Positions 1,575 to 6,163 of a stretch of 6,163 nt of DNA are shown piece after piece (the first letter of the stretch is position 1; each line of letters opens with the position of its first letter). The position numbers were made by a program, and so were the translations under genes. The notes under the pieces were generated by a model that saw nothing but the letters and a program-made list of their open reading frames with translations, made no database searches and was not told the origin of the DNA. The DNA lies in IMG/VR virus record IMGVR_UViG_3300020040_000002, positions 1 through 6,163 of that record, one strand, 5' to 3'. The stretch comes from a virus.

Positions 1575-3365
1575 ATGGGAAAACAACCTTTTATTTCGCA
1601 TGCTGTAAATGGTTATTCTCGGTACGATGTTCCTGAGAGTAAAGCTTTTACGTGCACACCGGGTATTTTGTATCCGGTGCGAATCGATTTTATTAACGCT
1701 CGTGATCGCGTATCTATCGAACAAGGCATTGATGTTCGCAGCAACCCCCTTGCTGTCCCGACGTTTAATCCCTACACTGTTCGACTTCACCGCTTTTGGG
1801 TGCCGCTTCAGCTGTATCACCCTGAGATGAGGACGAATAGCAGTAAGTTCGATATGAACAACTTGAGCCTGAATTTCGTTGCCGCTGCAACAACTGGCTC
1901 TTACGAGTACACTTACAATAACTACCCTTATTCCAACTCGTTGCTTCGTTGGCTGCGTGTTATCCCCGCTTCTATACCGACCCCGACCTCGAGTAACGTT
2001 CCGATGTCTGCCAATCTTACGGCGGCTCAGTTATCGTATCCTTTAGGTTGGTGTAATGCCGATTCTTATCTTGCTTACTGGGACATTGTCCGCAATTATT
2101 ACAGCTATTCCCAGTGGGGTCTCTACTCTTTCGCCTGGCCCTCCAGCTGGTGGTTCATCCCTAATAGCACTGGCACTGCGTATAACACCCCTCAGTTCAG
2201 CGACGTATCGACGTTTTTCTCGCAAAGAATCGGAAACCTCGAGTTTCTCGATGCTTATTATGAAAGCCAATTCTACCCTTCAGCTGTGCCGTCGTCGAAT
2301 AATACGTATAATAGGGGAAATCTTTTTTCCCAGATAGTGCTTTCGGACCTCGGCACTACGATTACCGCCTCCAAGAATGGCTACCCCGTTTCTACCATTT
2401 ATCCCGGAAGCACCTCGTTAACTACCGCAGGCCCCTCGAATCAACTTGCCGCTGGCCCTGGTACTACGACTGTTACTACGCTTGGAGCATTTCTTGTAGC
2501 TCATCCGATGGCCGTTATACCTTCAAATCCTGATCGTTATAGTCGCTTGCTCCCCGTCGGCAGTTCTGAGAGTGTTTCCATGTCTGGTGTTTCAACCATA
2601 CCACAGTTGGCTATTGCTTCACGGCTTCAGGAATATAAGGACTTGCTTGGTGCTGGAGGTTCTCGCTATAGTGATTGGCTGGAAACCTTTTTTGCGTCGA
2701 AGATTGAACACGTCGATAGACCTAAGCTGCTTTTTAGTGCTTCACAGACTGTCAACGTACAGGTCGTCCTGAATCAAGCAGGTCAAAACAACTTCAGTGG
2801 TCCGAGCGTCAATGGCCCTCTTGGCCAGCAAGGAGGTGCTATTGCCTTTAATGAGCGCCTTGGTCGTCGGCAATCCTACTACTTCCGTGAGCCCGGTTAT
2901 TTGATTGATATGCTGAGTATTCGCCCCGTCTACTATTGGGCAGGTATCTACCCCGACTACCTCCATTACACTGGTGCCGATTACTTTAATCCGATCTACA
3001 ATGACATTGGATATCAGGATGTTCCTGGGTTCCAGTTCGGCTTCGGAACTACTTCAGCCTCGGAGGCCGTGGCTTACGAACCGTGCTTTAACGAGTTCCG
3101 ATCCTCGTACGACGAGGTTCTTGGTCAGCTTTCCCGATTCCAAGGCACTGCTACCAGTATGCCTATCTATTCTTATTGGGTTCAACAGCGCGTTTTGTCG
3201 GCTAGCTATAACCAGTATTACTCCCTTCTGTTCGTGGATATTGACCAGGTAAACTCCCCGTTTGCCTCCAAGACAGAGGATAACTTTTTCATCAACCTTT
3301 CGTATTCTGTTCAGAAGAAGAATTTAGTTAACAAAACATTTGCAACCCGTTTGTCTAATCGCTAA
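1575..3365 (+). CDS. VP1: Major capsid protein (Microviridae VP1 / F protein family), 596 aa
   Basis: Family-typical segments: NPYTVRLHRFWVPLQLY near the N-terminus, AYWDIVRNYY, and ASRLQEYKDLLGAGGSRYSDWLETFF. Size and position directly after Rep (ATG 3 nt after the Rep TAA) also fit. Confidence 0.93.
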   Translation: MGKQPFISHAVNGYSRYDVPESKAFTCTPGILYPVRIDFINARDRVSIEQGIDVRSNPLAVPTFNPYTVRLHRFWVPLQLYHPEMRTNSSKFDMNNLSLNFVAAATTGSYEYTYNNYPYSNSLLRWLRVIPASIPTPTSSNVPMSANLTAAQLSYPLGWCNADSYLAYWDIVRNYYSYSQWGLYSFAWPSSWWFIPNSTGTAYNTPQFSDVSTFFSQRIGNLEFLDAYYESQFYPSAVPSSNNTYNRGNLFSQIVLSDLGTTITASKNGYPVSTIYPGSTSLTTAGPSNQLAAGPGTTTVTTLGAFLVAHPMAVIPSNPDRYSRLLPVGSSESVSMSGVSTIPQLAIASRLQEYKDLLGAGGSRYSDWLETFFASKIEHVDRPKLLFSASQTVNVQVVLNQAGQNNFSGPSVNGPLGQQGGAIAFNERLGRRQSYYFREPGYLIDMLSIRPVYYWAGIYPDYLHYTGADYFNPIYNDIGYQDVPGFQFGFGTTSASEAVAYEPCFNEFRSSYDEVLGQLSRFQGTATSMPIYSYWVQQRVLSASYNQYYSLLFVDIDQVNSPFASKTEDNFFINLSYSVQKKNLVNKTFATRLSNR

Positions 3366-3377
3366 TACATTGATTTT

Positions 3378-3674
3378 ATGGCACTTGATTGGTTACTCGC
3401 AGACGCTCCTGCTTATGTCTCCCGCGGTCAGCGAATTATGTCTGTTCTTGACGGTTCTGGCTCTGTCGACGTTTTGCCTGGCCGCCCAGACGTAGTGGTT
3501 GAGCCCTCTGACTTCGACAAGGGCGAGAAGTTTAACCCTGAAATCGATTTCGACCCTAATTCGTTCTCTCGTATGGATAAGTTTGATGGTCTCGAGGTTG
3601 GTCAGGAACTCATTGATTCTCAGTTAGATAAGGCTAAGTCTACCTCAAAGCCCTCTAACACTGAAGAAAAATAG
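3378..3674 (+). CDS. Hypothetical acidic 98-aa protein; possible scaffolding-type protein
   Basis: The ATG lies 12 nt after the VP1 stop. T/C-rich third positions match neighbouring genes. The protein is rich in D/E (DFDKGEKFNPEIDFDPNSF). Function is inferred only from charge and position next to the capsid gene. Confidence 0.6.
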   Translation: MALDWLLADAPAYVSRGQRIMSVLDGSGSVDVLPGRPDVVVEPSDFDKGEKFNPEIDFDPNSFSRMDKFDGLEVGQELIDSQLDKAKSTSKPSNTEEK

Positions 3675-3704
3675 TATATCCTTTACTTGACGATATATGC
3701 TACG

Positions 3705-3782
3705 TGCGCGGACCCCTTCTGTGAGAGTTCGTGAATCGCTGAAGGTTATTGGTAACGACTGCAGGAGAGGCCGCGCATTTTT
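3705..3782 (+). terminator. Long imperfect hairpin followed by a T5 run; terminator-like, and possibly an ssDNA structural element
   Basis: Base stem tgcgcgg (3705..3711) pairs with ccgcgca (3771..3777). A second helix 3713..3721 / 3762..3770 has one C-A mismatch and one G-T pair. A third helix agt(t)cgt 3726..3732 / acgact 3755..3760 follows, then a 22-nt apical loop, then ttttt (3778..3782). It starts 31 nt after the stop of the 98-aa ORF. Confidence 0.55.
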
Positions 3783-3832
3783 ACTATCGTTCTTTATTCA
3801 ATTGTTTACACCATTGTGGCGAGGTGACGTAT

Positions 3833-3859
3833 TTCGCGGTTCGGAGAACCGCCCCGAAC
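3833..3859 (+). other. Pair of mutually exclusive hairpins upstream of the lipoprotein-VP2 gene pair
   Basis: gcggttc (3836..3842) pairs with gaaccgc (3846..3852) around triloop gga, 7 bp. Alternatively gttcgg (3839..3844) pairs with ccgaac (3854..3859), 6 bp. The two folds share nucleotides and cannot coexist. Confidence 0.45.
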
Positions 3860-3904
3860 GAAGTGAGGGTACGGCACCGTAGCTTCCCCTTAATTTTTAA
3901 TGCC

Positions 3905-4096
3905 ATGTCAGACGTTAAACAACCCTTCTACAAGTCTAAGGCGTTCTGGACACTCATTTCGTCCATCGTTGCTGCATTGGCTGCTTTTTTTCTTGCTTCG
4001 TGCTCGGCTCAAGCTAAGATGCAGCGTAGTGGCGTTCACATAGACACCGTTCGTGTCGATTATATTATTCGTTCTAGAAATTTAACTCACGTGTAG
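3905..4096 (+). CDS. Small predicted lipoprotein precursor (63 aa; 31-aa mature peptide)
   Basis: Sequence MSDVKQPFYKSKAFWTLISSIVAALAAFFLASCSAQAK... has a basic n-region (K5, K10, K12), a hydrophobic core and a lipobox L-A-S-C with Cys33. Third-position T/C bias is like the other genes. The TAG stop (4094..4096) sits one nt before the VP2 ATG (4098). The upstream part of ORF 3749..4096 has only a TTG start and overlaps hairpins. Confidence 0.65.
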   Translation: MSDVKQPFYKSKAFWTLISSIVAALAAFFLASCSAQAKMQRSGVHIDTVRVDYIIRSRNLTHV

Positions 4097-4097
4097 T

Positions 4098-5360
4098 ATG
4101 CCTATACCTATCGCTGCCGCTGGCGCCGCTGCTTCTTTTGGTCGCGCCCTTGGCGGATCCGCCGCCTCTACTGGCTCTACCGGTTTAATAAACGGTTTTT
4201 TAGGTCAACTTTTTGGAGGCATGAATGCTCGCCGTCAGTGGCGATATCAGCAAAAACAGATGAAGCTTCAGCAGCAGTATGCTCTCGAGCAGATGCAGAA
4301 GCAGTCTGAACTCTCCTACGCTAATTGGCAAAAACAGTTCGATTATGAGAACGCTTACAATGATCCCTCGAAAGTTTTCGATCGCTATCTGAAAGCTGGC
4401 GTTACTCCTGCCGCCGTACTCGGCTCTTCTGGTGTCGGAGTAAATGCTACTATGTCTGGCGGCTCAGCCTCTATGCCCTCCGCCTCCGGTCCTTCGGGCG
4501 GCTCGCCTATCGCTCCTGGCGGTTTCGCAGCTTCTGATCCTGTGGCTATTGCGCAGAATATGATGGCTCGCTCCTCAGTTAATCGCAACGACGCTGCTGC
4601 TAATCGTGATAATGCTGAGGCTGAACTCATGAGAGGCAATACTCATAGTACTGACTGGCGGAAGGAGATGGATACCCTGGAGAAGAAGTCGTTAGAGCAT
4701 CACATTGACAATGTTTCCGAGTTAGTCCGCCTTAATCGCGCTCTAGCTGACATCCATGCTGCTGATGCCCAATACGCCGATCTTATGGCTACGTACAAGT
4801 TTCAAGACTTCCTTACCATGTATGCGAAACATGTTGAAGAGGCAAATCAAATCAAGAAGTATAACGACAAATACTTCGATTCTGTTTATGCCGCTCAAAT
4901 CGCTCGGGATTTCGCCGCCGCTTACGAATCCTCTTCCTCCGGTGATGTCTTGCAGGTTGAGTCTGAGGTTCTCAAGGTTAAGCTGGCTGATCTCCGTGAG
5001 TGGTTCAACCTCAATTGGGATTCCGAGATTGATGTCCCCGAAGTCAATGAGAAAGGTAAGCCCACCGGTAAGACGGTGAAGATGACAGGTCGCCAGATTC
5101 ATCAGAAGCTTATGGGTCTCGCCGTCTCGGAAGGCGAACAGGATCTCTCAGGTCGTTGGTTTCACAATCGATCCAGCAAGAATGCTTTTGGTTATAGCAT
5201 GGCGAGAACCGCTCTGCTTGGCGCCATGGCTCTTACCGGCTCGGTTGCGGCGAAGCGTCCCGCTGCTGCTGGTTACGATGAAAGTAAAGAGGTTTACGGC
5301 AAGGATGGCCGATACGCTGGCACAACAATGACTAGCCGTCGTTATATAGAGAAAGAATGA
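4098..5360 (+). CDS. VP2: Minor capsid / DNA pilot protein (Microviridae VP2, phiX174 H-like), 420 aa
   Basis: The N-terminus is Gly/Ala-rich (PIPIAAAGAAASFGRALGG). It is followed by a Q-rich coiled segment and the family-typical ENAYNDPSKVFDRYLKAGVTPAAVLG block. Position after the capsid module also fits. Confidence 0.85.
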   Translation: MPIPIAAAGAAASFGRALGGSAASTGSTGLINGFLGQLFGGMNARRQWRYQQKQMKLQQQYALEQMQKQSELSYANWQKQFDYENAYNDPSKVFDRYLKAGVTPAAVLGSSGVGVNATMSGGSASMPSASGPSGGSPIAPGGFAASDPVAIAQNMMARSSVNRNDAAANRDNAEAELMRGNTHSTDWRKEMDTLEKKSLEHHIDNVSELVRLNRALADIHAADAQYADLMATYKFQDFLTMYAKHVEEANQIKKYNDKYFDSVYAAQIARDFAAAYESSSSGDVLQVESEVLKVKLADLREWFNLNWDSEIDVPEVNEKGKPTGKTVKMTGRQIHQKLMGLAVSEGEQDLSGRWFHNRSSKNAFGYSMARTALLGAMALTGSVAAKRPAAAGYDESKEVYGKDGRYAGTTMTSRRYIEKE

Positions 5361-5440: not shown

Positions 5441-5761
5441 ATGAAAAAAGTAACAAGGAAATCTAGGATCGATGATTTGATGATTGATGTTATCGAGTAC
5501 GCCTTCACAGAATGGCTCGTTCGTCGAAATTTGTACTCCGCCTTCAAGGCAAACTACAGCACTAGGCCTTTGTCTCGCGACGGTTTTCGTGATCGCCTGC
5601 GTGCTCATATCCGGCGCTCCTTCAATAACCCCGTTTTTGGCCCAAAAAACCTCGTCTCCTCTGCGTTCGTATTCCTCTTTACGCCCGAGGGTGTTGCCTT
5701 CTGGACTGCCCAGGCCGCTGCCTGGGAACGCTTTTACTCTAAGTTTCAAACAAAACGTTAA
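5441..5761 (+). CDS. Hypothetical strongly basic 106-aa protein (candidate nucleic-acid-binding protein)
   Basis: ATG-initiated with coding-like T/C third positions. By hand count about 20 K+R against 9 D+E, with N-terminus MKKVTRKSR. No family recognised. Confidence 0.65.
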   Translation: MKKVTRKSRIDDLMIDVIEYAFTEWLVRRNLYSAFKANYSTRPLSRDGFRDRLRAHIRRSFNNPVFGPKNLVSSAFVFLFTPEGVAFWTAQAAAWERFYSKFQTKR

Positions 5762-5772
5762 ATTATTCCGCC

Positions 5773-6096
5773 ATGACAGAAATTCATCTTCTTGTCCGCC
5801 GTGTTAATCCGGCCATTAAAATTGACCTCGCTCAAGTAGGTTACATTAAAGACAGTCAGTTTACCCCCATTCCCTTCGATGCTATTGCGAATTCTCCTAT
5901 CGCGCCCTATCTGAAGAGTTCGTGCATTAGCGATTCGCTCTACGTCAACCACCCAGAAATCTCTGACCTCATTAAAGCCTGCGGAACCCTCCCTGGCTTT
6001 TGCGTCGAGTTTTTCGATAACACGATTGTTATTATGTTTAACCTTGAACTTGATTGCGATGAAAGCACGACGAAAGAAAAAAGGAAGAGGGACTAA
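5773..6096 (+). CDS. Hypothetical 107-aa protein spanning the circularisation junction
   Basis: The ATG lies 11 nt after the preceding TAA. Third positions are coding-like. The protein is slightly acidic with a basic tail TKEKRKRD. The terminator at 101..135 (second copy from 6143) follows it. No family recognised. Confidence 0.65.
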   Translation: MTEIHLLVRRVNPAIKIDLAQVGYIKDSQFTPIPFDAIANSPIAPYLKSSCISDSLYVNHPEISDLIKACGTLPGFCVEFFDNTIVIMFNLELDCDESTTKEKRKRD

Positions 6097-6163
6097 GGTT
6101 GTAACCCGTCCGCTTGGAGGTCGGGTCCTTTAGGCCGTCGGCTCCCAGGGGAGTCGCTCTCCC
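6043..6163. repeat. Terminal direct repeat, copy 2
   Basis: Identical to 1..121. Confidence 0.97.

Follow-up and report, generated by a model that had tools for sequence, protein, structure and literature searches.

LPP, a small putative lipoprotein gene next to the pilot-protein gene of a gut microvirus

The phage lipoproteins Llp of T5, Cor (T1, phi80 and N15) and Ltp of TP-J34 act by superinfection exclusion. Colicin lysis proteins, which bring about quasi-lysis or release by activating the outer-membrane phospholipase, are made as precursors of about 45-52 aa with mature parts of 27-35 aa, and the signal peptide of one of them, the bacteriocin release protein (BRP) of pCloDF13, is stable and toxic and contributes to lethality. 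Other small lysis proteins work through a membrane helix: the helix of phiX174 E, the only specific part of that protein, binds MraY, and LysM binds MurJ.

Few phages are as common in the animal gut as microviruses. All lytic members of the group must have some means of lysing the cell, and beyond phiX174 and its kin the literature leaves open both host lysis by microviruses and the way in which they keep each other out (PMC3394797, PMC7062461). Cells that carry a gokushovirus are immune to superinfection, through a mechanism still to be found (PMC7062461). The window analysed here is the whole 6,163-nt stretch of the IMG/VR virus record IMGVR_UViG_3300020040_000002. It carries a 63-codon gene, LPP, directly upstream of the gene for the DNA pilot protein VP2. 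LPP is new to the microvirus literature: we found no description of a lipoprotein in Microviridae, only the automated label of one nr record of the family, titled 'MAG TPA: lipoprotein [Microviridae sp.]'.

The LPP gene and its surroundings

The LPP coding sequence (3905..4096, + strand) consists of 63 codons from the ATG at 3905 to the TAG at 4094-4096, and its 63-aa product is MSDVKQPFYKSKAFWTLISSIVAALAAFFLASCSAQAKMQRSGVHIDTVRVDYIIRSRNLTHV. On the same strand follow one another the n-region M1-K12 (3905..3940), the hydrophobic h-region A13-F29, AFWTLISSIVAALAAFF (3941..3991), the lipobox L30-A31-S32-C33 (3992..4003), with Cys33 encoded at 4001-4003, and a predicted mature lipopeptide of 31 aa, C33-V63 (4001..4093), of a kind we call type A. 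The T/C bias at third codon positions described in the first-pass annotation was recovered, with 0.41 T and 0.24 C in LPP, in agreement with the other genes of the window.

An earlier suggestion was to look in related genomes for purifying selection and for loss of the ORF or its cysteine. All 82 orthologues were intact at 63 codons, the variable sites at codon positions 1, 2 and 3 numbered 30, 16 and 61, and dN/dS was 0.064 at a pS of 0.63, that is, with synonymous divergence near saturation. The remaining five frames across LPP had stops or pN above pS in these orthologues; the gene occupies its own genomic space, is not overprinted, and its alternative frames are closed or unselected. Among the informative genomes picked by similarity of their VP1 (capsid) sequence, 69 of 69 carried LPP, and the cysteine was present in all 271 unique family members. 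Purifying selection on LPP is strong, and the gene is real. Its shortness, the lack of a Pfam or PHROG family and its omission from several GenBank records might suggest a chance ORF in an intergenic stretch. The selection pattern in the 82 orthologues refutes this, and a chance ORF would not be expected to form a family of at least 784 protein clusters (395 in a separate count) or to keep 55-75% identity where the other genes of the genomes have diverged much further; we give it a negligible probability. LPP belongs to the core genes of one clade of gut microviruses, which have Bacteroidales, most likely Alistipes, as hosts.

The intergenic stretch before the gene (3675-3904) showed a mean diversity of 0.117 vs 0.46 at third codon positions. 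It includes a nearly invariant non-coding block (3681..3796, +; per-position identity at least 90% in 95 relatives) with the motif GCGCATTTTTACTATCGTTCTTTA at 3773-3796, which was found in distant relatives too. Between this block and the LPP start lies an insertion of about 95 nt with a GC-rich hairpin (3797..3890, +), present in about 10-20% of the relatives. Gene callers often read the non-coding block in frame, which gives a spurious N-terminal extension of 37 aa and products of 100 aa. The insertion breaks the frame of this extension and therefore supports M1 at 3905 as the true start. We rejected the 100-aa protein starting MLRARTP, as its upstream stretch is the near-invariant non-coding block, which both in the window and in the insertion-bearing relatives is either interrupted or not in frame, and the MSD start is conserved.

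Two further readings of the locus were discarded. In MG945498 the VP2 annotated across the LPP region is no fusion of the two genes; the annotation extends VP2 too far, in another frame. 'Long forms' of 172-223 aa in a sister lineage might be taken for a fusion of a lipoprotein with a tail or for a unimolecular spanin; selection in the LPP frame was seen only in about the first 60-65 codons, and beyond them it sits in another frame (per-frame pN/pS). The linker of the long forms is an alternative frame in which stops are depleted, as its second codon positions coincide with the third positions of the real gene, which are rich in T and C; the C-terminal basic tail might still be made as a fusion.

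A T7 homopolymer (3985..3991, +), made up of the T of a GCT codon and the codons for Phe28 and Phe29, had been pointed out within the signal-peptide coding region. The run is present in the window, but a conserved role is not borne out: its length varies from 2 to 8 across the 82 orthologues and reaches 7 or more in only 12 of them, and the Phe29 codon is TTC in 57/82. A programmed slippage site was ruled out, since the run is not conserved. A few database entries of the family are frameshifted at this site.

VP2 (4098..5360, +) matched PHROG 8689, 'pilot protein for DNA ejection' (E = 5e-9), and its start is separated from the LPP stop by a single nucleotide (TAG-T-ATG, 4094..4100, +). Among 92 related loci, 77 have this 1-nt spacer and four have one of 2 nt. 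No gene of the window, VP2 included, has a Shine-Dalgarno sequence. The junction is consistent with coupling of VP2 translation by termination and reinitiation. Expression of LPP together with VP2, as first proposed, thus finds support in the tight junction of the window's lineage, but the link is not obligatory, with LPP lying away from VP2 in Dulem virus 219, in the Alistipes prophage L011 and in L159 and L160. The junction, and a VP2 gene with no ribosome-binding signal of its own, would also suit a helper that acts inside the phage with no effect on the host envelope, either as an upstream frame setting the level of VP2 or as an anchor or chaperone of the pilot protein in assembly. A purely regulatory frame, however, would not hold a dN/dS of 0.064 or an invariant lipobox, other lineages do not keep LPP beside VP2, the type of LPP is independent of that of VP2, and cytoplasmic procapsids would be out of reach for an exported lipoprotein. 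We regard such a helper as very unlikely.

Lipoprotein signal and membrane targeting

The N-terminus of LPP agrees with the PROSITE PS51257-type lipoprotein rule, with K5 among the first 7 residues, six uncharged residues before the box and Cys33 within the limit of 35. The box fits [LIVMFWSTAG]2-[..]-[AGS]-C, and LASC also fits [LVI][ASTVI][GAS]C. The n-region is basic (K5, K10 and K12, the last invariant family-wide), and the h-region comprises 17 aa (A13-F29), or 20 aa if counted up to S32. In the alignment of the 271 unique members the position before the invariant cysteine was restricted to S (247), G (16) or A (8); position -2 was S, A, T or V, and position -3 mostly L (213/271). These results uphold the signal-peptidase-II-type architecture initially read from the window, with a basic n-region, a hydrophobic core, LASC, Cys33 and a 31-aa mature part, and LPP is very probably a real lipoprotein gene. 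Among the annotated genes, orfX (see below) being left out of the scan, it has the only membrane-grade hydrophobic segment (KD19 2.14).

AlphaFold2 predicted a helix at residues 12-33 (pLDDT about 90) and, in two runs with 10 and 19 sequences, no confident fold for the mature part (pLDDT 47-59). Selection was strong along most of the precursor, with dN/dS of 0.034 (residues 1-9), 0.040 (K10-C33) and 0.056 (residues 34-57); the tail, residues 58-63, stood at 0.249. The residues of LPP that are invariant across the family all lie in the signal peptide, and F14, W15, T16, A24 and F29 are invariant even across different types of mature peptide.

Profile and sequence searches gave no significant match for LPP in Pfam, PHROGs, NCBIfam, PADLOC or the PDB sequences. 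The best match, PADLOC PDC-M02A (E = 0.0065, 14.5 bits), was treated as noise. Pfam returned no family at E up to 0.1, Lysis_col included, and NCBIfam only weak matches of the signal region to lipoprotein models (E = 0.08-0.3). The only PHROG spanin match, to the signal region of a type-B member, was non-significant (E = 0.09). The comparison with Llp, Cor, Rz1 and the colicin lysis proteins suggested in the first-pass annotation therefore turned up no relative, either among their models or among PDB sequences.

In Bacteroidota, surface export of lipoproteins is signalled by K-(D/E)2 or Q-A-(D/E)2 just after the cysteine (PMC5080379). This signal is absent from LPP, whose positions +2 to +6 read SAQAK, and D or E occurred at these positions in only 5 of the 271 unique members, in line with the earlier remark that no acidic residues follow the cysteine and that surface export is not expected. 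We infer that the 63-aa precursor would be exported by Sec and lipidated at Cys33, and that signal peptidase II would remove residues 1-32. The product would be a slightly cationic lipopeptide of about 30 aa with many beta-branched residues. It would stay on the periplasmic side of a membrane because the surface-export signal is absent.

LPP could instead be an uncleaved bitopic membrane protein, with its N-terminus in the cytoplasm and its C-terminus in the periplasm, whose conserved transmembrane helix binds a host protein of the inner membrane, on the model of E and LysM, and whose cysteine serves another purpose. The helix is long (about 20 residues), confidently predicted and unusually conserved, and the C-terminal part varies by type, as it does in E. 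On the other side, an invariant cysteine preceded by S, G or A only, with variation at -2 and -3, is the signature of signal peptidase II, and an h-region of 17-20 residues lies inside the range accepted for lipoprotein signals (7-22). The mature part is itself constrained within its type. Moreover, the type-A mature peptide also occurs on unrelated hydrophobic segments ending in [S]C (clusters P0193, P0205 and P0206), which makes a specific helix dispensable; the preserved feature is thus a hydrophobic helix plus a lipobox cysteine. An uncleaved anchor appears improbable to us.

Exchange of LPP between microviruses and its possible roles

Outside microviruses LPP has no relatives: database searches found none in other phages, and the only copies in cells were two genome matches, both in microvirus prophages of Alistipes. 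Together with the lack of Shine-Dalgarno sequences, this agrees with the Bacteroidota host assumed at the outset. In integrated prophages LPP is the first phage gene beside host DNA (L011 in Alistipes montrealensis; L160, adjoining a host 4HBT gene).

LPP is modular and horizontally exchanged. Lineages that share only 28-32% identity in VP1 and VP4 (capsid and Rep) have LPP sequences that are 69-75% identical, and no co-variation of LPP type with VP1 or VP2 type was found. One conserved signal peptide bears at least four divergent types of mature peptide, those of the other types measuring 28-35 aa, and the types are swapped between near-identical backbones: the VP1 of L134 is 88% identical to that of the window and its VP2 is closest to the VP2s of type-A genomes, yet its LPP is of type B.

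The likeliest role of LPP, in our tentative assessment, is superinfection exclusion or a block of entry. As the first gene past the main non-coding region, and with translation that would feed straight into VP2 in the window's lineage, LPP is expected to be expressed early and in good amounts. The lipopeptide would then bind a component of the host envelope needed by incoming microviruses, for example a receptor, or the route of entry that the pilot protein takes through the periplasm or inner membrane. Other microviruses would be kept out, and progeny would not be wasted on infected cells and debris. Divergent mature peptides on one signal peptide are typical of host-interaction and exclusion morons; the swaps between near-identical backbones, the spread across divergent lineages, the variable position in the genome, the place next to host DNA in the prophages L011 and L160 and the non-overprinted genomic space of LPP point the same way, as do the superinfection immunity of gokushovirus carriers and the presence of a separate candidate for lysis (see below). 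Several observations speak against exclusion. LPP has no sequence or structural likeness to Llp, Cor, Ltp or any exclusion protein, and known exclusion lipoproteins are twice as large as its mature peptide (28-35 aa). The strong constraint on the signal peptide (dN/dS 0.04, pS 0.6) is not predicted by exclusion, whereas a model after the colicin lysis proteins predicts it. A periplasm-facing peptide could not mask surface glycans, the likely primary receptors. An essential function, lysis for instance, would explain equally well or better why a 6-kb virus keeps the gene in 69/69 genomes. The mature type is also independent of the phage's own VP1 and VP2 types, so any exclusion would act via a host factor and not by recognition of a specific capsid or pilot protein.

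Lysis or release, in the manner of the bacteriocin release lipoproteins, is a possible role that we hold to be only slightly less likely. The lipopeptide, possibly with a stable and functional signal peptide in the inner membrane, would weaken the envelope at a late stage of infection, either by itself or by providing the outer-membrane step next to the overprinted membrane protein orfX (see below). LPP is the sole canonical, non-overlapping gene of the window with a membrane-grade hydrophobic segment, and the profile searches (Pfam, PHROGs and NCBIfam among them) detected no peptidase or endolysin, as had been noted before. A core, strongly constrained gene would suit lysis, and the sizes of precursor and mature part (63 and 31 aa) resemble those of the colicin lysis proteins. 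The signal peptide is constrained as much as the mature part or more and bears all family-wide invariant residues, and exchange between divergent phages of one host genus would fit a host-envelope-specific lysis module too. Against lysis, LPP matches neither the Pfam colicin-lysis family nor any other lysis family. The early and fairly strong expression implied by its position and its feed into VP2 would be awkward unless the protein acts slowly, swaps of mature type among near-identical genomes are unexpected for a conserved target in cell wall or membrane, and a toxic gene at the prophage edge beside host DNA would need tight silencing.

A lysis candidate of a more classical kind is orfX, an ORF of 119 aa at 1099-1458 with two hydrophobic segments, overprinted in Rep. 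Synonymous variation of Rep is suppressed in this region (p=2e-24), and orfX is under selection. It is a second, hidden membrane-protein gene of the window and could be the lysis gene, with LPP, if involved in lysis at all, possibly as its partner at the outer membrane. The statement in the first-pass annotation that phiX174 E has no visible counterpart in the window does not hold in view of this ORF.

Sequence alone does not separate exclusion from lysis as the role of LPP. Being clade-wide, strongly selected and predicted to be exported, LPP is a concrete candidate for one of these two functions in microviruses. Its exchange across deeply divergent microviruses of one host genus shows that these 6-kb genomes trade host-interaction modules, and LPP may serve as a host marker of Alistipes-type microviruses. 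If LPP turned out to carry out lysis or release in Bacteroidales microviruses, no single-gene lysis factor of the lipoprotein type would have preceded it in any phage, and it would be a lysis module that unrelated microviruses sharing a host can exchange. Should LPP disable a function of the Bacteroidales envelope, so short a lipopeptide (about 30 aa) would be of practical interest.

Comparison with known systems

Like the o-spanin Rz1 of lambda and the unimolecular spanin gp11 of T1, LPP is a small, predicted periplasm-facing lipoprotein of a phage of Gram-negative hosts, and the long forms of the sister lineage superficially appear to join an N-terminal lipoprotein to a hydrophobic-basic C-terminal tail. 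However, no i-spanin partner (a type-II membrane protein with a periplasmic coiled coil) is encoded nearby, the mature peptide lacks proline, in contrast to the proline-rich o-spanins, the linker of the long forms is not selected in the LPP frame, and their C-terminal hydrophobic stretch spans only about 11 residues.

LPP and phiX174 E are both small microvirus proteins targeted to the membrane, and each has a conserved hydrophobic helix near its N-terminus. E differs in being overprinted in gene D, in having its C-terminus in the cytoplasm and in not being a lipoprotein, whereas LPP has genomic space of its own and an invariant lipobox; the E-like arrangement in the window is that of orfX inside Rep.

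The colicin lysis or bacteriocin release proteins (Pfam Lysis_col; ColE1 Kil, pCloDF13 BRP) differ from LPP in belonging to SOS-controlled plasmid operons of enterobacteria, and LPP is encoded by a phage of Bacteroidota. The sequences are not alike; the signal peptide of LPP, at 32 aa, is the longer one, and LPP has a cationic mature part with many beta-branched residues. Common to both are a tiny lipobox precursor, a mature part of about 30 aa and a small mobile replicon, and the signal peptide, which is the most conserved part of LPP, seems to be functional in both.

LPP likewise has no homology to Llp (T5), Cor (T1, phi80, N15) or Ltp (TP-J34); its mature part is about half their size and has no predicted fold, it belongs to a microvirus, and its adjacency to VP2 does not extend to all lineages. 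All are, like LPP, small phage lipoproteins with no role in the virion. Their genes often lie beside receptor-binding or DNA-delivery genes; LPP adjoins that of the VP2 pilot protein in the window's lineage but not in Dulem virus 219, L011, L159 or L160. Like Cor, LPP passes between unrelated phages that share a host.

The small ORF upstream of VP2

The window represents a complete circular microvirus genome, assembled with an overlap: it carries a 121-nt exact terminal direct repeat (1-121 = 6043-6163) and the true genome length is 6,042 nt. All genes lie on a single coding strand (+). They comprise Rep/VP4 (498-1571; Pfam REP_ORF2-G2P, PHROG 942), the major capsid protein VP1 (1575-3365; Pfam Phage_F, PHROG 514), a VP3-like ORF assigned by position and size (3378-3674), the ORF studied here, LPP, coding for a predicted small lipoprotein (3905-4096), the pilot protein VP2 (4098-5360; PHROG 8689) and three ORFs of ~107 aa each without family match (5441-5761, 5773-6096 and 178-501). 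No Shine-Dalgarno-like motif was found within 25 nt of any gene start in the whole window, which fits a host from the Bacteroidota, where this is usual. In GenBank, the genomes nearest to the window are labelled 'Microviridae sp.' and stem from the faeces of pigs, deer, civets, rodents, lemurs and tortoises.

The first-pass annotation correctly described the ORF and its product, including the LASC lipobox (Cys33), as well as the TAG-T-ATG junction to VP2 and the T7 run; the third-position T/C bias of LPP is that of the other genes. A protein search revealed 395 LPP clusters at 90% identity and a profile search 784. Among 1.84 billion 50%-identity representatives, 67 clusters were detected, all small microvirus-type proteins except for one 695-aa repetitive protein, a noise match. 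All 82 orthologues retrieved as DNA were intact at 63 codons, with 30, 16 and 61 variable sites at codon positions 1, 2 and 3, respectively (pS 0.63, pN 0.083, dN/dS 0.064). The other frames in these orthologues contained stops or showed pN > pS; no selected overlapping gene was detected, and the conservation of LPP is thus not due to one.

Of 80 loci picked by VP1 similarity alone, 70 are full-length genomes. The LPP motif was matched in 68 of these 70. Of the other two, L157 carries FWSL in its type-B copy; L149, an incomplete contig, is also missing residues 1-45 of VP2. With the latter set aside, LPP is present in 69/69 informative genomes. Compared with the window, the median identity of LPP is 87%, and that of VP1 and VP2 is lower (69% and 64%); LPP is conserved on a par with Rep and VP3. 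Many GenBank records leave LPP without annotation. A feature 'similar to VP2' at 3403-5028 of L003 (MG945498.1) proved to be over-extended at its 5' end across LPP, in a different frame.

A conserved signal peptide with exchangeable mature peptides

The LPP sequence satisfies the PROSITE-type lipoprotein rule. Across 271 unique sequences of the family the Cys never varies, and position -1 is restricted to S, G or A. Residues S, A, T or V occur at -2, and -3 is mostly L; this is the pattern that signal peptidase II requires. In P0193, P0205 and P0206 a type-A mature peptide follows quite different hydrophobic segments ending in FPSC, LSSC or FCSC, so the constant feature is a helix plus the lipobox Cys. 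AlphaFold2 predicted a confident helix for residues 12-33, terminating at the Cys, and no fold for the mature part. An effector that acts as the uncleaved helix, ending as this helix does at an invariant Cys, is an improbable reading; LPP is presumably processed as a lipoprotein. The surface-export signal of Bacteroidota, K-(D/E)2 or Q-A-(D/E)2 (PMC5080379), is missing after the Cys in the family sequences, and the product, anchored in either the inner or the outer membrane, should therefore face the periplasm.

The signal peptide (..SKKFWTL..IVAAL.AFF..C) is shared by mature peptides of at least four divergent types, 28-35 aa long: type A, that of the window (CSAQA[KR].QRSGVHIDTVRVDYIIRS.N..), type B (CTTRHYVVQSASSIKSGDTTRTTITYEQIGNFKRP), type C (CSRSVLTFRGQGDVEFRYQG..) and type D (CATSTTLTVRGAQVDSLDFNRTVQFK..). 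The residues invariant across the family (K12, F14, W15, T16, A24, F29 and C33) all lie within the signal peptide. Type A is under strong constraint in both halves (dN/dS 0.040 over K10-C33, 0.056 over residues 34-57). One genome, L134, encodes a type-B LPP although its VP1 is 88% identical to that of the window, and its VP2 groups with the VP2s of type-A genomes; judged by this comparison, LPP types are swapped among near-identical backbones. Four family members (P0217, P0221, P0222 and P0227) are frameshifted at or just past the T-run coding for Phe28-Phe29, probably through homopolymer sequencing errors, or else by occasional real slippage. The T7 run itself is not conserved in the family.

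In a sister lineage (L011 6977-7585; L093-L096, L098, L099, L124) the LPP module lacks a stop codon and reads on for ~135 codons through the alternative frame of another gene to a basic tail. About 30 representative clusters are such 'long forms' of 172-223 aa, composed of the LPP module, a variable S/T/P/L-rich linker and a conserved tail ..RSRRGGRRGKPRPKIKTIPLGGSHL. Per-frame selection analysis of two sets of close relatives (L093-L096; L098/L099) revealed purifying selection in the LPP frame over the first ~200 nt only, which makes the ~60-aa module the functional unit. Beyond this point selection acts in another frame, that of a separate conserved protein, and the linker is not under selection in the LPP frame; it stays open because its second codon position coincides with the T/C-rich third position of the other gene. 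As the basic tail lacks an ATG of its own in several of these genomes, a fusion product of LPP and tail is conceivable in this lineage. The window contains a tiny basic ORF without family match, MLLCLTLNLIAMKARRKKKGRGTKVVTRPLGGRVL (end ..KARRKKKGRGTKVVTRPLGGRVL), at 6026-6133 (+), which overlaps the end of ORF 5773-6096 in a different frame and runs on into the terminal repeat. Its motif (..RRGGRRGKPRPK.KTIPLGGSHL) ends the long-form proteins of the sister lineage. It may be a candidate equivalent of the DNA-binding J/VP8 peptides of other microviruses, which we take it to resemble by composition.

Genomic position and host

LPP adjoins VP2 in the lineage of the window, where 77 of 92 loci have a single nucleotide between the two genes. 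In Dulem virus 219 its place is between VP2 and Rep, in L159 it is upstream of a small ORF and Rep, and in L011 and L160 it is the first phage gene beside host DNA. A role as a VP2-related helper, for which one would look to this adjacency, appears highly improbable across these arrangements. In every arrangement LPP is the first gene past the main non-coding region. In the window, this region contains a block (3681-3796) that is nearly invariant in 95 relatives, with conservation far above that of coding sequence. Part of the block, GCGCATTTTTACTATCGTTCTTTA, also occurs in distant relatives, and the block is probably a cis element, e.g. an origin of replication, a promoter or a site of integration. 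It is frequently called by gene callers as a 37-aa N-terminal extension of LPP. It is followed by a ~95-nt insertion with a GC-rich hairpin (3797-3890; CGCGGTTCGGAGAACCGCCCCGAACG), present in only ~10-20% of relatives and conserved among its carriers; it resembles a small mobile element that has inserted between the genes.

A scan of genomes from 185,579 species revealed two LPP loci, both in integrated Alistipes microvirus prophages (L011 in A. montrealensis, L012 in an uncultured Alistipes). These belong to another microvirus lineage, and the LPP of L011 is 75% identical to that of the window despite only 28-32% identity of the prophages' VP1 and VP4. Similarly, Dulem virus 219 shares 69% identity in LPP but 32% in VP1. 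We infer an Alistipes-like Bacteroidales host for the window.

A candidate lysis gene within Rep and the possible role of LPP

Searches of Pfam, PHROG and NCBIfam detected no peptidase or endolysin among the genes of the window. Among the annotated genes, to which the hydrophobicity scan was confined and which do not include orfX, an ORF overprinted on Rep, only LPP has a segment of membrane-grade hydrophobicity. The earlier statement that the genome has no recognisable lysis gene did not hold. In an alignment of 96 genomes, third-position diversity of Rep is lowered from 0.432 to 0.169 precisely within nt 1099-1458 (Mann-Whitney p = 2e-24), with first and second positions unchanged and no comparable dip in any other gene. 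This stretch is probably an overprinted gene: in the +1 frame (+ strand) it encodes the 119-aa orfX, which contains two hydrophobic segments and ends in a conserved PPYPVE.R. Of 93 informative relatives, 91 keep the ORF intact from the same start to the same stop, and in relatives with a Rep of only 48-86% identity the frame is still open over 115-133 codons. OrfX has no Pfam or PHROG match. With its phiX174-E-like arrangement it is a candidate single-gene lysis protein of the classical kind, and part of the original rationale for LPP is weakened by it.

LPP showed no similarity in Pfam, PHROGs, NCBIfam, PADLOC or PDB, and we found no microvirus lipoprotein described in the literature searched; one nr entry carries the automated name 'lipoprotein'. 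The function of LPP is consequently deduced from its anatomy and evolution. A role in superinfection exclusion or entry block is our tentative preference. It is favoured by the genomic space that LPP has to itself, its moron-like mobility and variable position, the swapping of types, its first-gene position, implying early expression, its place at the prophage edge, and the existence of orfX as a separate candidate for lysis. A match of the PADLOC candidate defence protein model PDC-M02A to LPP residues 28-62 (E = 0.0065, 14.5 bits) was taken as noise, though one to revisit should exclusion be followed up. A release or lysis effector resembling the colicin lysis proteins would agree with the core status of LPP in a 6-kb genome, its tiny mature size and its unusually constrained signal peptide; we regard this role as only slightly less likely than exclusion. 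LPP offers a well-founded, directly testable lead on two open questions of microvirus biology.

The overprinting of orfX on Rep is the arrangement known from the phiX174 genes E, B and K. Small phage lipoproteins are likewise known as a kind; new is a family of them without detectable relatives, in a virus family without described lipoproteins, and its modular evolution is unusual.
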